Assembly (NCBI GenBank): GCA_965203355.1
Contig: OZ241889.1
Span: 4,032,001-4,096,000, forward strand
Direction of reading: 5' to 3'
DNA: 64,000 bases
Origin: Candidatus Latescibacterota bacterium
GTDB taxonomy: Bacteria; Latescibacterota; UBA2968; UBA8231
A program made the position numbers and the translations under genes. Below are positions 27,934 through 35,811 of this stretch, piece after piece. The notes under the pieces were generated by a model. The model was not told the origin of the DNA. It searched no databases and saw only the letters and a program-made list of their open reading frames with translations. The stretch's first letter is position 1. The number at the start of each line of letters is the position of its first letter.

Positions 27934-29085
27934 CTAACGACCGACGATCGGCGGCAGGTTGGTCGCCGGGCAGGCGCGAGGGCCTTGGACGGGATAGCCC
28001 ATATCCGCGAGGACGCAGTTGATTTGGGCTTCTAGCTTGATCAGGTACTCCTGCTCGGACGCGCTGCTCAACGTGCGCGCTGGGCCTACGTCAAAGCCAC
28101 GAGCCGCCACTCCCGTCTTGAAGCCCTCTGGGAAATTGACTCCGAGGAGCATCAAATTTATGAGATCGAGGATGCGGTATTGCAGTTCGCGGGCCCGCTC
28201 AATGTCGCCGCTTTGGGCCTTTTCATACAGCTCGACGATGACTTCCGGGACAATGCCCGCGGTGGCGATGGTGCCCCCGCTGGCTCCCATGAGTACCGCC
28301 GGGAACACGATCTCCTCACAACCGGTCATCACCACGTAGTCCGAGCGCTGTTGGCGCAAGCGGTTCATGGCGTTGAGCAGCCTCGGTAGATCGCGGCTGG
28401 AGTCCTTGGTGCCGAAGATCCGATCATAGGGCAAGAGCCGCTCCATCAGCTCTATTGACAGCTCTTGGGTAAATCGCGGGATATTGTACAGCAGGATGTC
28501 CAGCGGCGACTGTTCGGCGATTTCAGCGAAGTACTCGAAGAGGCTCTCGGTGGAAATCTCGTAGTAATAGGGGGGCATCAGCGCGATAGCATCCACGCCG
28601 AGCGCGGCATAGTATTCGGCCATCTTGAGCACATCGCGCAAATTGGCCTCACTCGCTCCAGCTAGGACGGGTACGCGCCCGGCGTTGACCTCGCAGACCA
28701 GCCGCACCACGTCTTGGCGCTCCTCTTGCGACAGGCGCGCGAACTCGCCCGTGCTGCCGTTGGGGTACAGCCCGTGGATCCCAACCTCGATCAGCCAGTT
28801 GATGTAGCGCTCCATCTCGGCGTGGTTGATCTCGTTCTCGCTGTTGAAAAGGACGACATTGGGACAGAAGATGCCAGCAAATGCCTTGCGGCCGGCCGCT
28901 GGTGCTGGCGTTGGAAGGGCTTGATGGCCCGCTTCCCGGCGCACGATCTCAACGCCTTGGGCCTGCAAAAAATCCTGCGCCGACGGCGTCAGTTTAGCCC
29001 CCGGGCCGATCTCGACCTGCCGCTCGCCCGCTAGGCGACTCTCCAAGGTCTGCGCGGTAATCACTGCATCGTCAATCCGAATCAT
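27934..29085 (-). CDS. DHDPS/NAL family class I aldolase with a BMC-associated N-terminal module
   Basis: NGSTGEF, PPYY, LYNIP and GTKDSS. About 65-aa N-terminal extension VIT..L..LTPSAQDFL..GVEIVR. Confidence 0.88.
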   Translation of the reverse strand: MIRIDDAVITAQTLESRLAGERQVEIGPGAKLTPSAQDFLQAQGVEIVRREAGHQALPTPAPAAGRKAFAGIFCPNVVLFNSENEINHAEMERYINWLIEVGIHGLYPNGSTGEFARLSQEERQDVVRLVCEVNAGRVPVLAGASEANLRDVLKMAEYYAALGVDAIALMPPYYYEISTESLFEYFAEIAEQSPLDILLYNIPRFTQELSIELMERLLPYDRIFGTKDSSRDLPRLLNAMNRLRQQRSDYVVMTGCEEIVFPAVLMGASGGTIATAGIVPEVIVELYEKAQSGDIERARELQYRILDLINLMLLGVNFPEGFKTGVAARGFDVGPARTLSSASEQEYLIKLEAQINCVLADMGYPVQGPRACPATNLPPIVGR

Positions 29086-29099
29086 TGCTCGCGTCCTCG

Positions 29100-30248
29100 C
29101 TAAACGTGCGGCAGGCGACCTTCGAGGCCGCTGTAGGGCTGCGGGATGGCGTAGGCCGCGACCAGTTCCCCATGCGCGACGGCCTCCTCCCGGCCCGCAT
29201 CAATAGCGACCTGCACGGCACCGACATCGCCGCGGACGACAGCGGCCGTCAAGTAGTATCCCACCTTATAGGCCCCTTCGTATTCGACGGCTGCGGCCTT
29301 GAGCATCCGATCGACAGCCCGCACCAAAGCCACGGTACTGCGCGTCTCGATCAACCCCATGGCCTGCCGTGCTCCCGTGCCAAGCCCGTCGGTCGCGGTG
29401 GCAAAACGGGCGATTAGCGCGGGATCGGGCCTAGAGACTACCGCCGAGGCGTCGAGCGGCCCCAAGGCCGTGGCCAGCTCGGCCCCGGCGCACACCGCGG
29501 CCTGCACGTCGTCTAGATTACCAAGGGCCAGTGCGGCAATCCGCCCGCCGCTGCCCATGCTCAAGCGCTCGATTTGAACATCCGCGGCCTTGAGCATGGC
29601 GTCGGCGCGGCCTACGACCGAGGCATAACCAATGGTCTCTATGAGACCCAAGGCCCCGGTGGAGCGCGGCTCGACCCTTGGCGCAGGCGGCAGCAGCGGC
29701 CCTAGTCCTGCGCTGGGCTGAGGCAAAACGAGCGTCGCGTACACAGTGCCGCTCCGCTCGGCTGCTTGCCGGCCCACGGCTAGCGCGGTCTGCACGGCCG
29801 CCACATCGCCAAAGATCGGCGCGTGACACAGCGCACCGCCGATGAAAGCCCAACCCCCTAGCTCCACTTGGGCGGCCTTGAGCATGGCGTCGGCACCGAC
29901 CACTAGCGGCGTCAGGCCCTGCGTCTCCAACAAGCCAATCGCCCGCGGCTGAATCTGTTCGGCGCCGAGGCCGGCGGCGTGGGGCATGGCGTCCGTAGCG
30001 CGTGCATCCGGCCGCGGCACCACGCGCACACCAATCAGTTCGCCGGTGCGGCTCGCCTCGACCTCGCCGACGCGAATGGCCGCTTCTACATCAGCCACTT
30101 GGCCGACGATTACGGCGGTGAGCCAACCCGAACCAATGCTGTGCCGCCCGCAGATTTGCACCTCAGCGGCCTTGAGCATGGCGTCGGTGGCAGCCATCAG
30201 CGACGCCATGCCGCGCGTCTCCAGTATGCCGATCGCGCCGCTAGACAC
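29100..30248 (-). CDS. BMC shell protein with four tandem BMC domains
   Basis: Four repeats of A(I/L/M)G(I/L)(L/I)ET..D(A/R)MLKAA.V..G.V..V..A..(P/S)(R/Q)P. Confidence 0.92.
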   Translation of the reverse strand: MSSGAIGILETRGMASLMAATDAMLKAAEVQICGRHSIGSGWLTAVIVGQVADVEAAIRVGEVEASRTGELIGVRVVPRPDARATDAMPHAAGLGAEQIQPRAIGLLETQGLTPLVVGADAMLKAAQVELGGWAFIGGALCHAPIFGDVAAVQTALAVGRQAAERSGTVYATLVLPQPSAGLGPLLPPAPRVEPRSTGALGLIETIGYASVVGRADAMLKAADVQIERLSMGSGGRIAALALGNLDDVQAAVCAGAELATALGPLDASAVVSRPDPALIARFATATDGLGTGARQAMGLIETRSTVALVRAVDRMLKAAAVEYEGAYKVGYYLTAAVVRGDVGAVQVAIDAGREEAVAHGELVAAYAIPQPYSGLEGRLPHV

Positions 30249-30825
30249 CGCCCCCTCCCATCGGCACGGCGTACGCGGCCAAAACCTCGGGCCGCGGCTG
30301 TGGGATCAGGCCCGTGCTCAGCAAGTGCTCGCCGCCCGCGAGCAACTTTTGCGCGACAGCTATGGCTTCGGTAACGGCCCCTACGTCCCCCAAGACGAGC
30401 GAACACACCACGCGGTCGTGGACCGTCAGCACGTTGATTACTTCGACGGACGCTGTCTTGACCATCTGATCGTTGGTGTGAATGTGAGCCCCGTAGCCGC
30501 GCGTCTCGACCCATCCCAAGGCACCCGCGGGAAAATCGCGGTCGGACCGGACCGGAAAATCGACGAAATGGCGGCAGGCGGCAGCAGGTTGGTGAACGGG
30601 CGCGGCCACCACGTGTTCTATCACGCCGCGGGCCGCTTCTTCGCCGCTTTGCAGCGCGGCCGCCACCGCGCTGATCGATCCGGTGAGAAAGGCCGTGGTA
30701 TAGCCGCCGATGGACGACCAACCCGCGAGTTGCACCTCCGCGGCCTTGCAAGCCGCATCCGCACCCACAATGGCCGCGGCCACGCCCTGCACCTCGATCA
30801 TACCCACGGCCGGATCGCCCGCCAT
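30241..30825 (-). CDS. BMC shell protein with two BMC domains
   Basis: AVGMIE..ADAACKAAEV and ALGWVETRG..DQMVKTASV..GDVGAV..IPQP. Confidence 0.9.
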   Translation of the reverse strand: MAGDPAVGMIEVQGVAAAIVGADAACKAAEVQLAGWSSIGGYTTAFLTGSISAVAAALQSGEEAARGVIEHVVAAPVHQPAAACRHFVDFPVRSDRDFPAGALGWVETRGYGAHIHTNDQMVKTASVEVINVLTVHDRVVCSLVLGDVGAVTEAIAVAQKLLAGGEHLLSTGLIPQPRPEVLAAYAVPMGGGGV

Positions 30826-30828
30826 AAC

Positions 30829-34585: not shown

Positions 34586-34649
34586 AAAATAGGCGACCCC
34601 AATCCGAGCGTCAAGGTTATTTGACGGGCTGCCAGCCCGGCCTTAAGGT
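34586..34649. promoter_or_regulatory. Back-to-back sigma70-like promoters for the BMC operon and the FAH gene
   Basis: Minus strand: TTGACG-17-TATTTT. Plus strand: TTGACG-17-TAAGGT. Confidence 0.55.
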
Positions 34650-34683
34650 TTGTGCAAGTGCTGGAAAAACAAAGGAGAAAGAC

Positions 34684-35487
34684 ATGCGCATCATCCGCTT
34701 TATCGACGCTGACGACACCGTCCGGTGGGGCCTCGAAGCCGAGGGAGGCCAAGCCTCTGTCCTCGCCGGCGATCTCTTCGCCGAACTCGTGCCCACCGGC
34801 GAACAAGTGTCCGTCAAAAGACGGCTCGCTCCGCTGGCCCCGACTAACATTTTCTGCATTGGGCTAAACTACCGCGAACACGCGGCCGAATCCGGGCTCG
34901 AGCCGCCCGAACAGCCCGTCGTCTTTGCCAAGCCCACGAGCGCGGTCTGCGGACCGGGCGACCCGATCCTGCTGCCAGCCTGTTGTCGCCGCGGCCCGGA
35001 AGTTGACTACGAGTGCGAACTCGCGGTGGTGATCGGCAAGGCCACCCGCAACGTGGCGCGAGCCGACGCCCTCAGCTGCGTACTCGGCTACACGTGCGCC
35101 AATGACGTCTCGGCCCGCAAGTGGCAGCTAAACGGCGGCGGCGGCCAGTGGATCCGCGGCAAGGGCTTTGACACCTTCTGCCCTTTGGGGCCGACGCTGG
35201 TCACTGCCGACGAAATTCCCGATCCGCAAACCCTCGGCATCCGCACGATCCTCAATGGCGCGACCATGCAGGACCACACCACCGGCGATATGATCTTCAC
35301 AGTCGCTGAATTGATCGAATTCCTCAGCGAAGATACGACCTTGCTGCCGGGCACGGTCATTCTCACCGGCACCCCGCAGGGCGTGGGTTTTGCACGCCAA
35401 CCGCCCGTGTGGTTAGCGGCCGGCGACGAGGTAGTCGTGGAAATAGACCAGATTGGCTCGCTACAAAACCCGGTGCAAGCGGCCTAA
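34684..35487 (+). CDS. Fumarylacetoacetate hydrolase family protein
   Basis: CIGLNYREH, VDYECEL, NDVSAR, GKGFDTFCPLGP and LTGTP.GVG. AAGGAG RBS. Confidence 0.93.
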   Translation: MRIIRFIDADDTVRWGLEAEGGQASVLAGDLFAELVPTGEQVSVKRRLAPLAPTNIFCIGLNYREHAAESGLEPPEQPVVFAKPTSAVCGPGDPILLPACCRRGPEVDYECELAVVIGKATRNVARADALSCVLGYTCANDVSARKWQLNGGGGQWIRGKGFDTFCPLGPTLVTADEIPDPQTLGIRTILNGATMQDHTTGDMIFTVAELIEFLSEDTTLLPGTVILTGTPQGVGFARQPPVWLAAGDEVVVEIDQIGSLQNPVQAA

Positions 35488-35490
35488 CGT

Positions 35491-35811
35491 TTACTCTTCC
35501 TTGAACATCCCGAAGGCAAAGGCTTCGGGTAGCTCCTCAAAGATGATCTGCCCCTCGTCGTCGGTCTCCAGTAACTGGGCCATGTAGTCGTACCACTTTT
35601 CTAGGATGGGAACTTGGCGGCTCTTGAGCCAGTCTTCTTCGGTGGGGGCCACCGCGTGGATGACGAGGTGTTCGCCCAAGCGGTAGATGGCCATGCTGAC
35701 CTCGTTGTCGGTCATGCTGTCGGCGATTTCGGGCCACAGATCGTCGTGGGCCTGTTTGTACTCGGCGTACGCATTGGGACGCAACCGCATGCCCAAACCA
35801 ATCGAATACAT
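35491..35811 (-). CDS. rhaM: L-rhamnose mutarotase family protein
   Basis: M.LRP...EYKQAHDDLWPEI..IY..WYDYMAQLLE. Confidence 0.75.
   Translation of the reverse strand: MYSIGLGMRLRPNAYAEYKQAHDDLWPEIADSMTDNEVSMAIYRLGEHLVIHAVAPTEEDWLKSRQVPILEKWYDYMAQLLETDDEGQIIFEELPEAFAFGMFKEE

Follow-up and report, generated by a model that had tools for sequence, protein, structure and literature searches.

A 64,000-nt stretch of the genome of a Candidatus Latescibacterota bacterium (assembly GCA_965203355.1, contig OZ241889.1, positions 4,032,001 to 4,096,000 of the forward strand), referred to as the window and numbered from its first letter, was analyzed for bacterial microcompartment (BMC) genes and for enzymes encoded with them. 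Pfam and NCBIfam scans identified a compact operon of 11 genes on the minus strand (25886–34571), with spacing between genes from an 8-nt overlap up to a 37-nt gap. Its first part encodes an acylating aldehyde dehydrogenase (AldDH; 33144–34571; NF011927, 646 bits, cut-off 403; PF00171), a pentamer (vertex) protein (BMC-P; 32830–33144; PF03319, 84.7 bits), a PduL-type phosphotransacylase (PduL; 32155–32826; PF06130, 216.5 bits over residues 39–212; NF011652, 218.9 bits, cut-off 209), a tandem (2xBMC) shell protein (T1; 31557–32117; PF00936, 176.5 bits in two stretches), a hexamer shell protein (BMC-H; 31280–31543; PF00936, 93.4 bits), and a 148-amino acid (aa) Cys-rich open reading frame (ORF) without Pfam or NCBIfam family (CysR; 30829–31275). 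The remainder comprises, in this order, a second tandem (2xBMC) shell protein of 194 aa (T2; 30241–30825; PF00936, 112 bits in two stretches), a four-domain fusion shell protein of 382 aa (4xBMC; 29100–30248; PF00936, 245 bits in four stretches), a 383-aa enzyme of the dihydrodipicolinate synthase (DHDPS)/NAL family (DHDPS1; 27934–29085; PF00701, 195.6 bits over residues 69–352), a DAO-family FAD-dependent oxidoreductase whose gene begins at the base adjoining the DHDPS1 stop (DAO; 26860–27933; PF01266, 189.7 bits), and a second, divergent DHDPS-family protein of 313 aa (DHDPS2; 25886–26827; PF00701, 35 bits). All three classes of shell protein are encoded, PF00936 being present in BMC-H, the two 2xBMC proteins, and 4xBMC, and PF03319 in one gene. 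The locus is a real operon for a protein organelle, predicted to be an aldehyde-oxidizing BMC (metabolosome). The scans confirmed the gene list from AldDH to the DHDPS-like aldolase that an earlier note, made from the letters of the window, had given; DAO and DHDPS2, which lie downstream of DHDPS1, had been overlooked there. The note had also placed an FAH-family hydrolase and an L-rhamnose mutarotase at the flank. Both genes are present nearby (FAH, about 34684–35487, plus strand, PF01557, 256 bits; rhaM family, 35491–35811, minus strand, PF05336, 53.7 bits, cut-off 23.4) but outside the operon: FAH is transcribed divergently from AldDH, the two being separated by an intergenic region of 112 nt (34572–34683) with presumed promoters, and rhaM is convergent with FAH.

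The N-terminus of AldDH carries an encapsulation-peptide-like amphipathic helix (residues ∼14–32), which is the hydrophobic-moment peak of the protein, followed by a Gly/Ser-rich linker; among 11 relatives the helix is kept and the linker varies. An alignment of PduL likewise showed a conserved N-terminal amphipathic helix resembling an encapsulation peptide (residues ∼8–24), again followed by a variable linker. Together with a C-terminal helix of CysR (see below), these helices uphold in silico the encapsulation peptides that had been proposed for the three proteins. Among the 68 window ORFs scanned, no match was found for PF00596, PF01228/PF02901, diol dehydratase, EutBC, PF00871, or PF00465; the earlier statement that class II aldolases, glycyl-radical and B12 enzymes, kinases (PF00871), and alcohol dehydrogenases (PF00465) are missing thus holds for the families listed. 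A search for riboswitches and other known RNAs ahead of the operon gave no hit, with no Rfam family matching positions 25000–37000 at E ≤ 1. Metatranscriptome contigs from two studies were ∼90–95% identical to parts of the operon, one contig of 5.5 kb spanning T2 to rhaM, but contigs from RNA libraries cannot demonstrate transcription, DNA carry-over being possible, and expression is not claimed.

Related genome loci were collected by searching with DHDPS1, whose presence in all 71 of them is therefore by construction; almost all of the loci are titled Latescibacterota or "Gemmatimonadetes" metagenome-assembled genomes (MAGs), and the window proteins were counted in them by tblastn. DHDPS1 was 63–92% identical across these loci over its whole length, including its N-terminal domain, and 64–95% identical among the 120 family matches listed. 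T2 and 4xBMC were each present in 68/71 loci, directly upstream of DHDPS1; in the other three (L021, L068, and L069), the sequence begins at or inside the aldolase gene. DAO was found in 51, CysR in 48, DHDPS2 in 46, BMC-P and PduL in 45 each, and AldDH in 44 of the loci. The gene arrangement is not due to chance, its order recurring in 44–51 of the 71 loci. In five genomes with the main operon that were searched, no BMC genes were found beyond that locus except for one or two isolated BMC-H genes. Genes flanking the main loci (QueC, LytB/IspH, HNH, Lon-N, DtxR-like, Znu-type ABC, and SUI1) were set aside as a functional clue because they represent housekeeping synteny. Individual loci deviate from the common layout: extra BMC-P genes lie upstream of AldDH in L044 (2587–4044), which also has an extra 2xBMC gene, and in L029 (2631–2936), where FAH stands between the extra BMC-P and AldDH and is hence embedded in the BMC locus. 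In L060, the module of shell tiles and aldolase has, immediately upstream, an aldehyde:ferredoxin oxidoreductase gene (4119–5990, plus strand), a possible alternative aldehyde sink.

The type of this locus has been catalogued. Sutter et al (2021; Nat Commun 12:3809; PMC8217296) list a metabolosome of unknown function 2 (MUF2), and in the phyloXML supplement to their catalog, BMC-T proteins of 187–194 aa from "Gemmatimonadetes" MAGs are labeled bmcType=MUF2, main or satellite; among them are CME13_09850, by locus tag, and members of the CME20 and CME25 genomes with matching lengths. By exact look-up, the T2 of locus L020 is CME20_01425, that of L050 is CME25_02550, and the 90% cluster of the L043 T2 includes CME13_09850. 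The T2 orthologues from syntenic loci were 73% and 49% identical to the window T2 and belong to the catalog clade 'Ts_hazel', labeled MUF2. Because T2 orthologues in syntenic loci bear this label, the window locus is most likely MUF2, which is catalogued though uncharacterized, and the "new metabolosome type" claimed in the earlier note cannot be upheld as stated; what may be novel is the proposed function and the docking-like domain, not the locus type. The catalogued type and the window locus share an orthologous BMC-T, AldDH, PduL, and the lack of a named signature enzyme, with no structural difference between them. The main text of the catalog counts MUF2 among the types without an obvious signature enzyme, and its table of hidden Markov models (HMMs; Supplementary Data 2 aside) contains no PF00701 entry, the sole DAO HMM belonging to MIC6. 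MIC6 was ruled out as the type of the window locus, its labeled members being Desulfobacteraceae with a permuted BMC-H. The literature found on MUF2 microcompartments consisted of the 2021 catalog and its preprint only, and no earlier proposal linking a microcompartment with dihydrodipicolinate synthase or with a 2-keto-3-deoxy/lactaldehyde route was found.

DHDPS1 is the candidate signature enzyme of the locus and is, in this role, well supported in silico. The protein passes the tests for the DHDPS/NAL superfamily (TIM barrel, Schiff-base lysine, catalytic tyrosine, and the G-S/T-T-G-E motif): in alignments with solved family members, K227 coincides with the Schiff-base lysine, and Y200 and GSTGE coincide with other catalytic elements. 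A true DapA was ruled out. The score of DHDPS1 on the DapA model TIGR00674 (159.5 bits) is below the cut-off of 206.15, and a phenylalanine stands at the position of an arginine of Methanocaldococcus jannaschii DapA which we take to be the defining, aspartate-semialdehyde-binding residue. Furthermore, DapA matches were found in the five related genomes searched, of 333–340 bits (elsewhere in the genome) in three and of 216–226 bits in the other two, all above the cut-off, compared with 140–158 bits for the DHDPS1 orthologues of the same genomes. The AlphaFold2 (AF2) model comprises a β-α-β-α-β domain (residues 1–49; pLDDT about 80), a disordered Pro/Ala linker (50–68), and the TIM barrel (69–383). 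The top Foldseek match was YagE (2v8z; E = 4e-17, TM 0.64/0.80), with DapA, sialate lyases, and HOG aldolase close behind, and identity to solved members was 24–30%. Neither Foldseek nor phmmer searches against solved structures separated the aldolase, synthase, and dehydratase subfamilies, and KdgD models scored below those of DapA, NanA, and KDG aldolase. Because fold and sequence are alike to several subfamilies, DHDPS1 was classified as a class I pyruvate-type enzyme without substrate assignment. The fold and the catalytic residues are those of the keto-deoxy-sugar-acid aldolases of the DHDPS/NAL family (YagE/YjhH, archaeal KDG aldolase, and L-2-keto-3-deoxyfuconate [L-KDF] aldolase), and the Picrophilus KDG aldolase has a motif like YNIPxFT of DHDPS1; in contrast to these known enzymes, DHDPS1 carries ∼68 extra N-terminal residues and is encoded in a BMC operon. 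DHDPS-family aldolases are known from non-phosphorylative fucose catabolism, and an L-KDF aldolase of this family was reportedly described by Watanabe in 2020. In Campylobacter jejuni, a gene annotated as 'dapA' is among the most strongly fucose-induced genes (PMC12566272, Table 3), which fits DHDPS-family L-KDF aldolases. The proposal of a DHDPS-family class I aldolase as signature enzyme, already made in the earlier note, is borne out by synteny, by the failed DapA tests, and by the N-terminal domain, which is common to other proteins of BMC loci.

DHDPS1 and CysR share homology over their N-terminal ∼50 residues (BLASTP, E = 2e-8). In a 22-row alignment of this N-terminal domain (N-domain), T10, L14, T33, P34, and D38 were invariant; within the DHDPS1 family, the N-domain is conserved but the linker is not. 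CysR consists of the N-domain (∼50 aa), a variable linker, a Cys cluster with conserved C68, C77, C92, C95, C110, and C113, and a conserved C-terminal amphipathic helix. In its AF2 model, pLDDT was above 90 for the N-domain, about 88–90 for the C-terminal helix (131–147), and below 50 for the Cys region. A structure search with this model, for which the N-domain was the only confident part, gave a best Z of 6.0 (a Cas1 chain) and otherwise values ≤4.9, which denote a common arrangement; no fold was assigned. A profile of the N-domain matched 1016 proteins (E ≤ 0.001) among 1.84 billion cluster representatives. When 40 of these were scanned, 4 were DHDPS fusions, 4 were weakly RpiB-like, and 32 had no Pfam family; the EutQ cupin domain was absent from all 40. 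The N-domain was present in 102 of 150 sampled genomes of the phylum, with strong matches (aldolase and CysR) in 70 and weak ones (RpiB-like) in 32. BMC domains were present in 135 of the 150 genomes, and the N-domain was found in 102/135 with and in 0/15 without BMC domains; several of the 15 are small assemblies, and the sampled genomes are interrelated.

In two loci (L193 and L194), the RpiB-like protein with the N-domain is encoded inside an SPU-like BMC locus, in the order BMC-H, BMC-P, PduS, BMC-T, BMC-P, RpiB-like protein, BMC-P, acetate kinase, class II aldolase, BMC-H, and AldDH, an order corresponding to the locus that Axen et al (2014; PMC4207490) described in Latescibacteria as "SPU-like". 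This locus is from the same phylum and shares the N-domain profile with the window locus, but differs from it by having PduS, the RpiB-like protein, a class II aldolase, and acetate kinase, and by lacking DHDPS, DAO, CysR, and 4xBMC. In L110, an RpiB fusion with the N-domain is encoded away from shell genes; the genome nonetheless bears BMC genes. The N-domain also showed a weak alignment to residues 3–47 of Escherichia coli EutQ (hhalign probability 29%, E = 5.8e-4, 43 columns, 23% identity). Like the N-domain, this region of EutQ is situated at the N-terminus of a BMC-associated protein, before a flexible linker, and a 2025 study (PMC12487888) reports binding of the H1/H2 region of EutQ to the Eut shell. 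The same study describes EutQ 1–99 as helical, whereas the N-domain is predicted by AF2 to adopt a β-α-β-α-β arrangement. Prediction of a complex between the T2 trimer and the N-domain scored 0.27 against a mark of 0.32, which speaks neither for nor against binding. The N-domain is taken to be a putative BMC-associated docking or assembly module. A role as linker or redox accessory is probable for CysR, in which the same N-domain is joined to a Cys cluster of metal type and, at the C-terminus, to an encapsulation-peptide-like helix.

Apart from the main operon, 16 loci contain T2, 4xBMC, and DHDPS1 only; AldDH, PduL, CysR, DAO, and DHDPS2 are not nearby. A PduL match was found elsewhere in all five genomes with such a stand-alone triad that were searched. 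The PduL regions of three of them contained, by tblastn, PduL, BMC-H, three BMC-P, and an AldDH 57% identical to that of the window, and a Pfam scan of the main locus of one (L077) also identified a class II aldolase, acetate kinase, and a 494-aa protein. The main locus of triad genomes has a PVM-like architecture. The 494-aa protein of L077 (7840–9324, minus strand), encoded between PduL and BMC-H, is conserved and has no Pfam or NCBIfam family. Downstream of the triad are genes for PhyH, a Zn-dependent dehydrogenase (Zn-ADH), an epimerase-family protein, and two enolase-superfamily proteins, one of which passes the cut-off of galactonate dehydratase (397.6 versus 311 bits); other triad loci have amidohydrolase, heparinase II/III-like, and sulfatase genes downstream. 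DHDPS2 was not found in the five triad genomes searched with the window query, a search that had no positive control. T2 and 4xBMC form a module with the aldolase, whose substrate or docking they probably serve. The 4xBMC protein scored 257.6 bits on the CcmO model NF053792, below the cut-off of 270. With three chains there would be twelve domains, from which two linked pseudohexameric tiles could be made; no paper on four-domain BMC proteins was found in a literature search. A possible, though not the expected, outcome is that the N-domain is an undescribed folded module that docks cargo to dedicated tiles, that the triad is a portable plug-in giving any lactaldehyde-type metabolosome a non-phosphorylative sugar-acid entry, and that 4xBMC represents covalently paired tiles. 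The docking module would then be distinct from the classical amphipathic-helix encapsulation peptide, and its carriers would be the aldolase, CysR, and the RpiB-like proteins. In the window, a gene for a protein with DUF6785/DUF6784 (42409–44667, plus strand) is ∼7 kb away from the operon; these families are also encoded, followed by a very large FtsX-like protein, just upstream of a stand-alone triad (L035, 2–5392), and their proximity to both arrangements suggests remnant synteny of the main operon and the triad.

DAO and DHDPS2 constitute a second conserved branch of the operon. Among proteins of solved structure, DAO is closest to glycine oxidases (103 bits), with which the G-L-R-P motif could be aligned; the arginine of this motif is presumably the substrate-carboxylate-binding residue. 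On the ThiO model TIGR02352, DAO scored 157.1 bits, below the cut-off of 250.8, and so failed the test for glycine oxidase. DHDPS2 has, in the family alignment, a conserved lysine in a G-x-K-I/V-G-T motif. Its best solved relative is 3e96 (45 bits), and a search of the ESM Atlas returned generic "DHDPS family" clusters only. A metagenome scan yielded 80 loci with DHDPS2 relatives. Wherever upstream sequence exists, relatives of at least 61% identity are encoded behind DAO in the BMC operon; for those of 52–59% identity, BMC and DAO neighbors are absent. Eleven of 12 selected long non-BMC loci were scanned (L150, which resembles L148, was omitted). Within 5.5 kb, an enolase-superfamily gene was found in 6/11 and a GFO/IDH/MocA oxidoreductase gene in 6/11, one or the other being present in 10/11; GntP permeases, aldose 1-epimerase, aldo-keto reductase, PhyH, and sulfatases were encoded in these loci as well. 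None of the 11 had a PF01266 neighbor. Because these clusters have the content of sugar-acid catabolic loci, DHDPS2 is probably a keto-deoxy-sugar-acid enzyme.

The genes of the locus and their relatives point, with about even confidence, to a metabolosome of the MUF2 type in which the aldehyde is supplied by a class I 2-keto-3-deoxy-sugar-acid aldolase. A 2-keto-3-deoxy-aldonate would arise in the cytosol from a sugar or deoxy-sugar by oxidation and dehydration, with enolase-superfamily dehydratases encoded elsewhere, and this acid would pass into the shell. There, DHDPS1, kept in the organelle by its N-domain of ∼50 residues, would cleave it to pyruvate and a short hydroxy-aldehyde, which AldDH, targeted by its encapsulation peptide, would convert to the acyl-CoA; PduL would form the acyl-phosphate and recycle CoA. 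Lactaldehyde from 6-deoxy-hexonates is the favored aldehyde in view of the partner locus, which is PVM-like, and of the neighboring rhaM and FAH. Glyceraldehyde or glycolaldehyde, also possible products, would agree equally well with the galactonate-dehydratase-type neighbor and the YagE-like fold. Two observations argue for a metabolosome with a sugar-acid aldolase: outside the main operon, both DHDPS genes accompany sugar-acid dehydratases, and the triad plugs into a core elsewhere that serves an aldolase of the fuculose/rhamnulose-phosphate type.

Close known counterparts are the PVM and PVM-like systems, in which an AldDH and PduL core likewise acts on the aldehyde that an aldolase frees from a sugar derivative; the catalog ties their class II aldolase enzyme set to fuculose and rhamnulose phosphate (PMC8217296). 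None of the PVM hallmarks (PF00596 class II aldolase, BMC-P triplet, acetate kinase) was found within the window. The locus differs from PVM in that class II aldolase, acetate kinase, and an LDH-like gene are missing, in its single BMC-P, in a shell with 2x and 4x BMC fusions, and in an aldolase of class I (Schiff-base lysine, DHDPS fold), the presumed substrate of which is a non-phosphorylated keto-deoxy acid.

Several observations weigh against a sugar-acid aldolase as the source of the aldehyde. Both the activity and the encapsulation of DHDPS1 are predictions, and the protein resembles DapA, KDG aldolase, YagE, sialate lyase, and HOG aldolase to about the same degree (97–127 bits); its sequence fixes neither the substrate nor whether an aldolase or a dehydratase/deaminase is encoded. 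The third core enzyme of metabolosomes, an NAD+-recycling alcohol dehydrogenase (PF00465), is not among the 68 ORFs; another NAD+-recycling enzyme is absent from the locus and an acyl kinase from the window. The nearest sugar-acid dehydratase gene of the window lies ∼11.5 kb off (13216–14355), outside the operon. A pure sugar-acid scheme leaves the conserved, glycine-oxidase-like DAO without a function, and rhaM and FAH fail equivalog cut-offs and are inconstant neighbors. The likeness of the N-domain to EutQ, from which docking might be argued, is weak. Finally, the context evidence stems from related lineages, and the loci are not independent.

The presence of DAO gives weight to an amine or imino-acid metabolosome, in which DAO, as the first enzyme, oxidizes a D-amino or imino acid (e.g., cis-4-hydroxy-D-proline or glycine), and a DHDPS-family deaminase/dehydratase then forms α-ketoglutarate semialdehyde or glyoxylate, to be oxidized in the organelle. 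Enzymes leading to α-ketoglutarate semialdehyde include D-hydroxyproline dehydrogenase of the DAO family, pyrroline-4-hydroxy-2-carboxylate deaminase and KdgD of the DHDPS family, and 2-keto-3-deoxy-pentonate dehydratase of the FAH family, all three families being represented at the locus; DAO and DHDPS2 directly follow the aldolase in 51/71 and 46/71 loci, and the solved relatives and the aligned G-L-R-P motif of DAO are those of glycine oxidases. This explanation is nevertheless unlikely. DAO remains under the ThiO cut-off (157 versus 250.8), KdgD models fit DHDPS1 less well than those of DapA, NanA, and KDG aldolase, and the operon showed no epimerase of the proline-racemase type. In addition, the 11 non-BMC loci of DHDPS2 relatives have sugar-acid genes instead of a PF01266 neighbor, and in the 16 triad loci the aldolase and the two tiles persist without DAO and DHDPS2, the latter not being found in the five triad genomes either (by the search without positive control). 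Even less probable is that DHDPS1 is a mere neighbor rather than cargo, with the aldehyde produced elsewhere or by DAO alone and the N-domain serving a function unrelated to the shell. Encapsulation is indeed a prediction, the N-domain differs from the classical amphipathic helix of encapsulation peptides, and the RpiB fusion of L110 carries it away from shell genes. However, the aldolase adjoins T2 and 4xBMC wherever upstream sequence exists (68/71 loci, stand-alone triads included), and the N-domain is present on three different proteins in two types of BMC locus and, within the 150-genome sample, only in BMC-bearing genomes. Because of this invariant position and the N-domain shared with other BMC proteins, the mere-neighbor idea is very unlikely.

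A narrower form of the sugar-acid proposal, and the one put forward in the earlier note, dedicates the organelle to L-rhamnose and L-fucose: DHDPS1 would be an aldolase for L-2-keto-3-deoxyrhamnonate or L-KDF that releases L-lactaldehyde, with FAH and rhaM in the same pathway. The two genes are adjacent in the window, and the best NCBIfam model of FAH is an L-rhamnonate-pathway hydrolase (2,4-didehydro-3-deoxy-L-rhamnonate hydrolase, NF053535). The AldDH/PduL core of triad genomes, whose AldDH is 57% identical to that of the window, moreover occurs with acetate kinase and a class II, FucA-like aldolase, an enzyme set of the kind that the catalog assigns to fuculose and rhamnulose phosphate (PMC8217296). 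FAH, however, reached 218.5 bits on its model against a cut-off of 500, and rhaM reached 41.2 on TIGR02625 against 99.6, both thus scoring below the equivalog cut-offs; FAH was present in only 33/71 loci, and rhaM in 17/71, all of them close relatives. The only aldolase-adjacent dehydratase above a cut-off is of the galactonate-dehydratase type, the hydrolase route of FAH and the aldolase route would be alternatives rather than partners, and DAO is left without explanation. Thus, sugar-acid catabolism stands in outline, whereas the L-rhamnose/L-fucose route, which ignored the conserved DAO and DHDPS2, is rather doubtful as stated; it is a special case of the sugar-acid aldolase metabolosome that is not established.

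The proposal that MUF2 is fed by a class I 2-keto-3-deoxy-sugar-acid aldolase provides an orphan BMC type with a testable function, a signature enzyme, and a defined substrate panel. It adds a candidate folded docking domain on three putative cargo proteins, a stand-alone module of aldolase plus tiles, and a natural four-domain shell protein. MUF2 appears to be common in the phylum, given the strong N-domain matches of aldolase and CysR in 70 of the 150 sampled genomes. If true, BMC chemistry would widen: to phosphorylated sugars, which class II or DeoC aldolases process, it would add sugar-acid routes of the non-phosphorylative kind, such as serve marine deoxy- and sulfated polysaccharides. 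If confirmed, the N-domain and the aldolase-plus-tiles module would be parts for targeting enzymes to engineered shells.

Elsewhere in the window, three enolase-superfamily genes, two SDR genes (1918–3613, about 25 kb away), and a PhyH dioxygenase gene are located within 637–6525 and 13216–15131, together with a second DAO-family gene that passes the cut-off of N-methyl-L-tryptophan oxidase (409 versus 257 bits); these genes may be part of the cytosolic pathway. A pair of PhyH and enolase-superfamily genes likewise directly follows the aldolase in stand-alone triad loci. An HNH-endonuclease-family gene (25506–25889, plus strand) is convergent with the operon and overlaps its end by 4 nt. Its position is kept in 48/71 loci, with 52–92% identity, which is unusually stable for HNH genes. 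The adjoining stretch 21981–25155 has a GC content of about 0.50, compared with about 0.62, and contains a PcfJ-like ORF of 588 aa, an XRE-type HTH gene, and small ORFs of unknown kind. Situated between the HNH and Lon-N-domain genes, which are adjacent in L022, L044, and L059 (the scanned loci in which both were called), the stretch is probably an inserted mobile element. On the other side of the operon, 37082–42508 encodes a Uma2-family endonuclease, a leucine-rich-repeat protein of 525 aa, and an 880-aa protein in which an M28-peptidase-like/DUF4910 region is fused to a domain of the aminoglycoside 3-N-acetyltransferase family.

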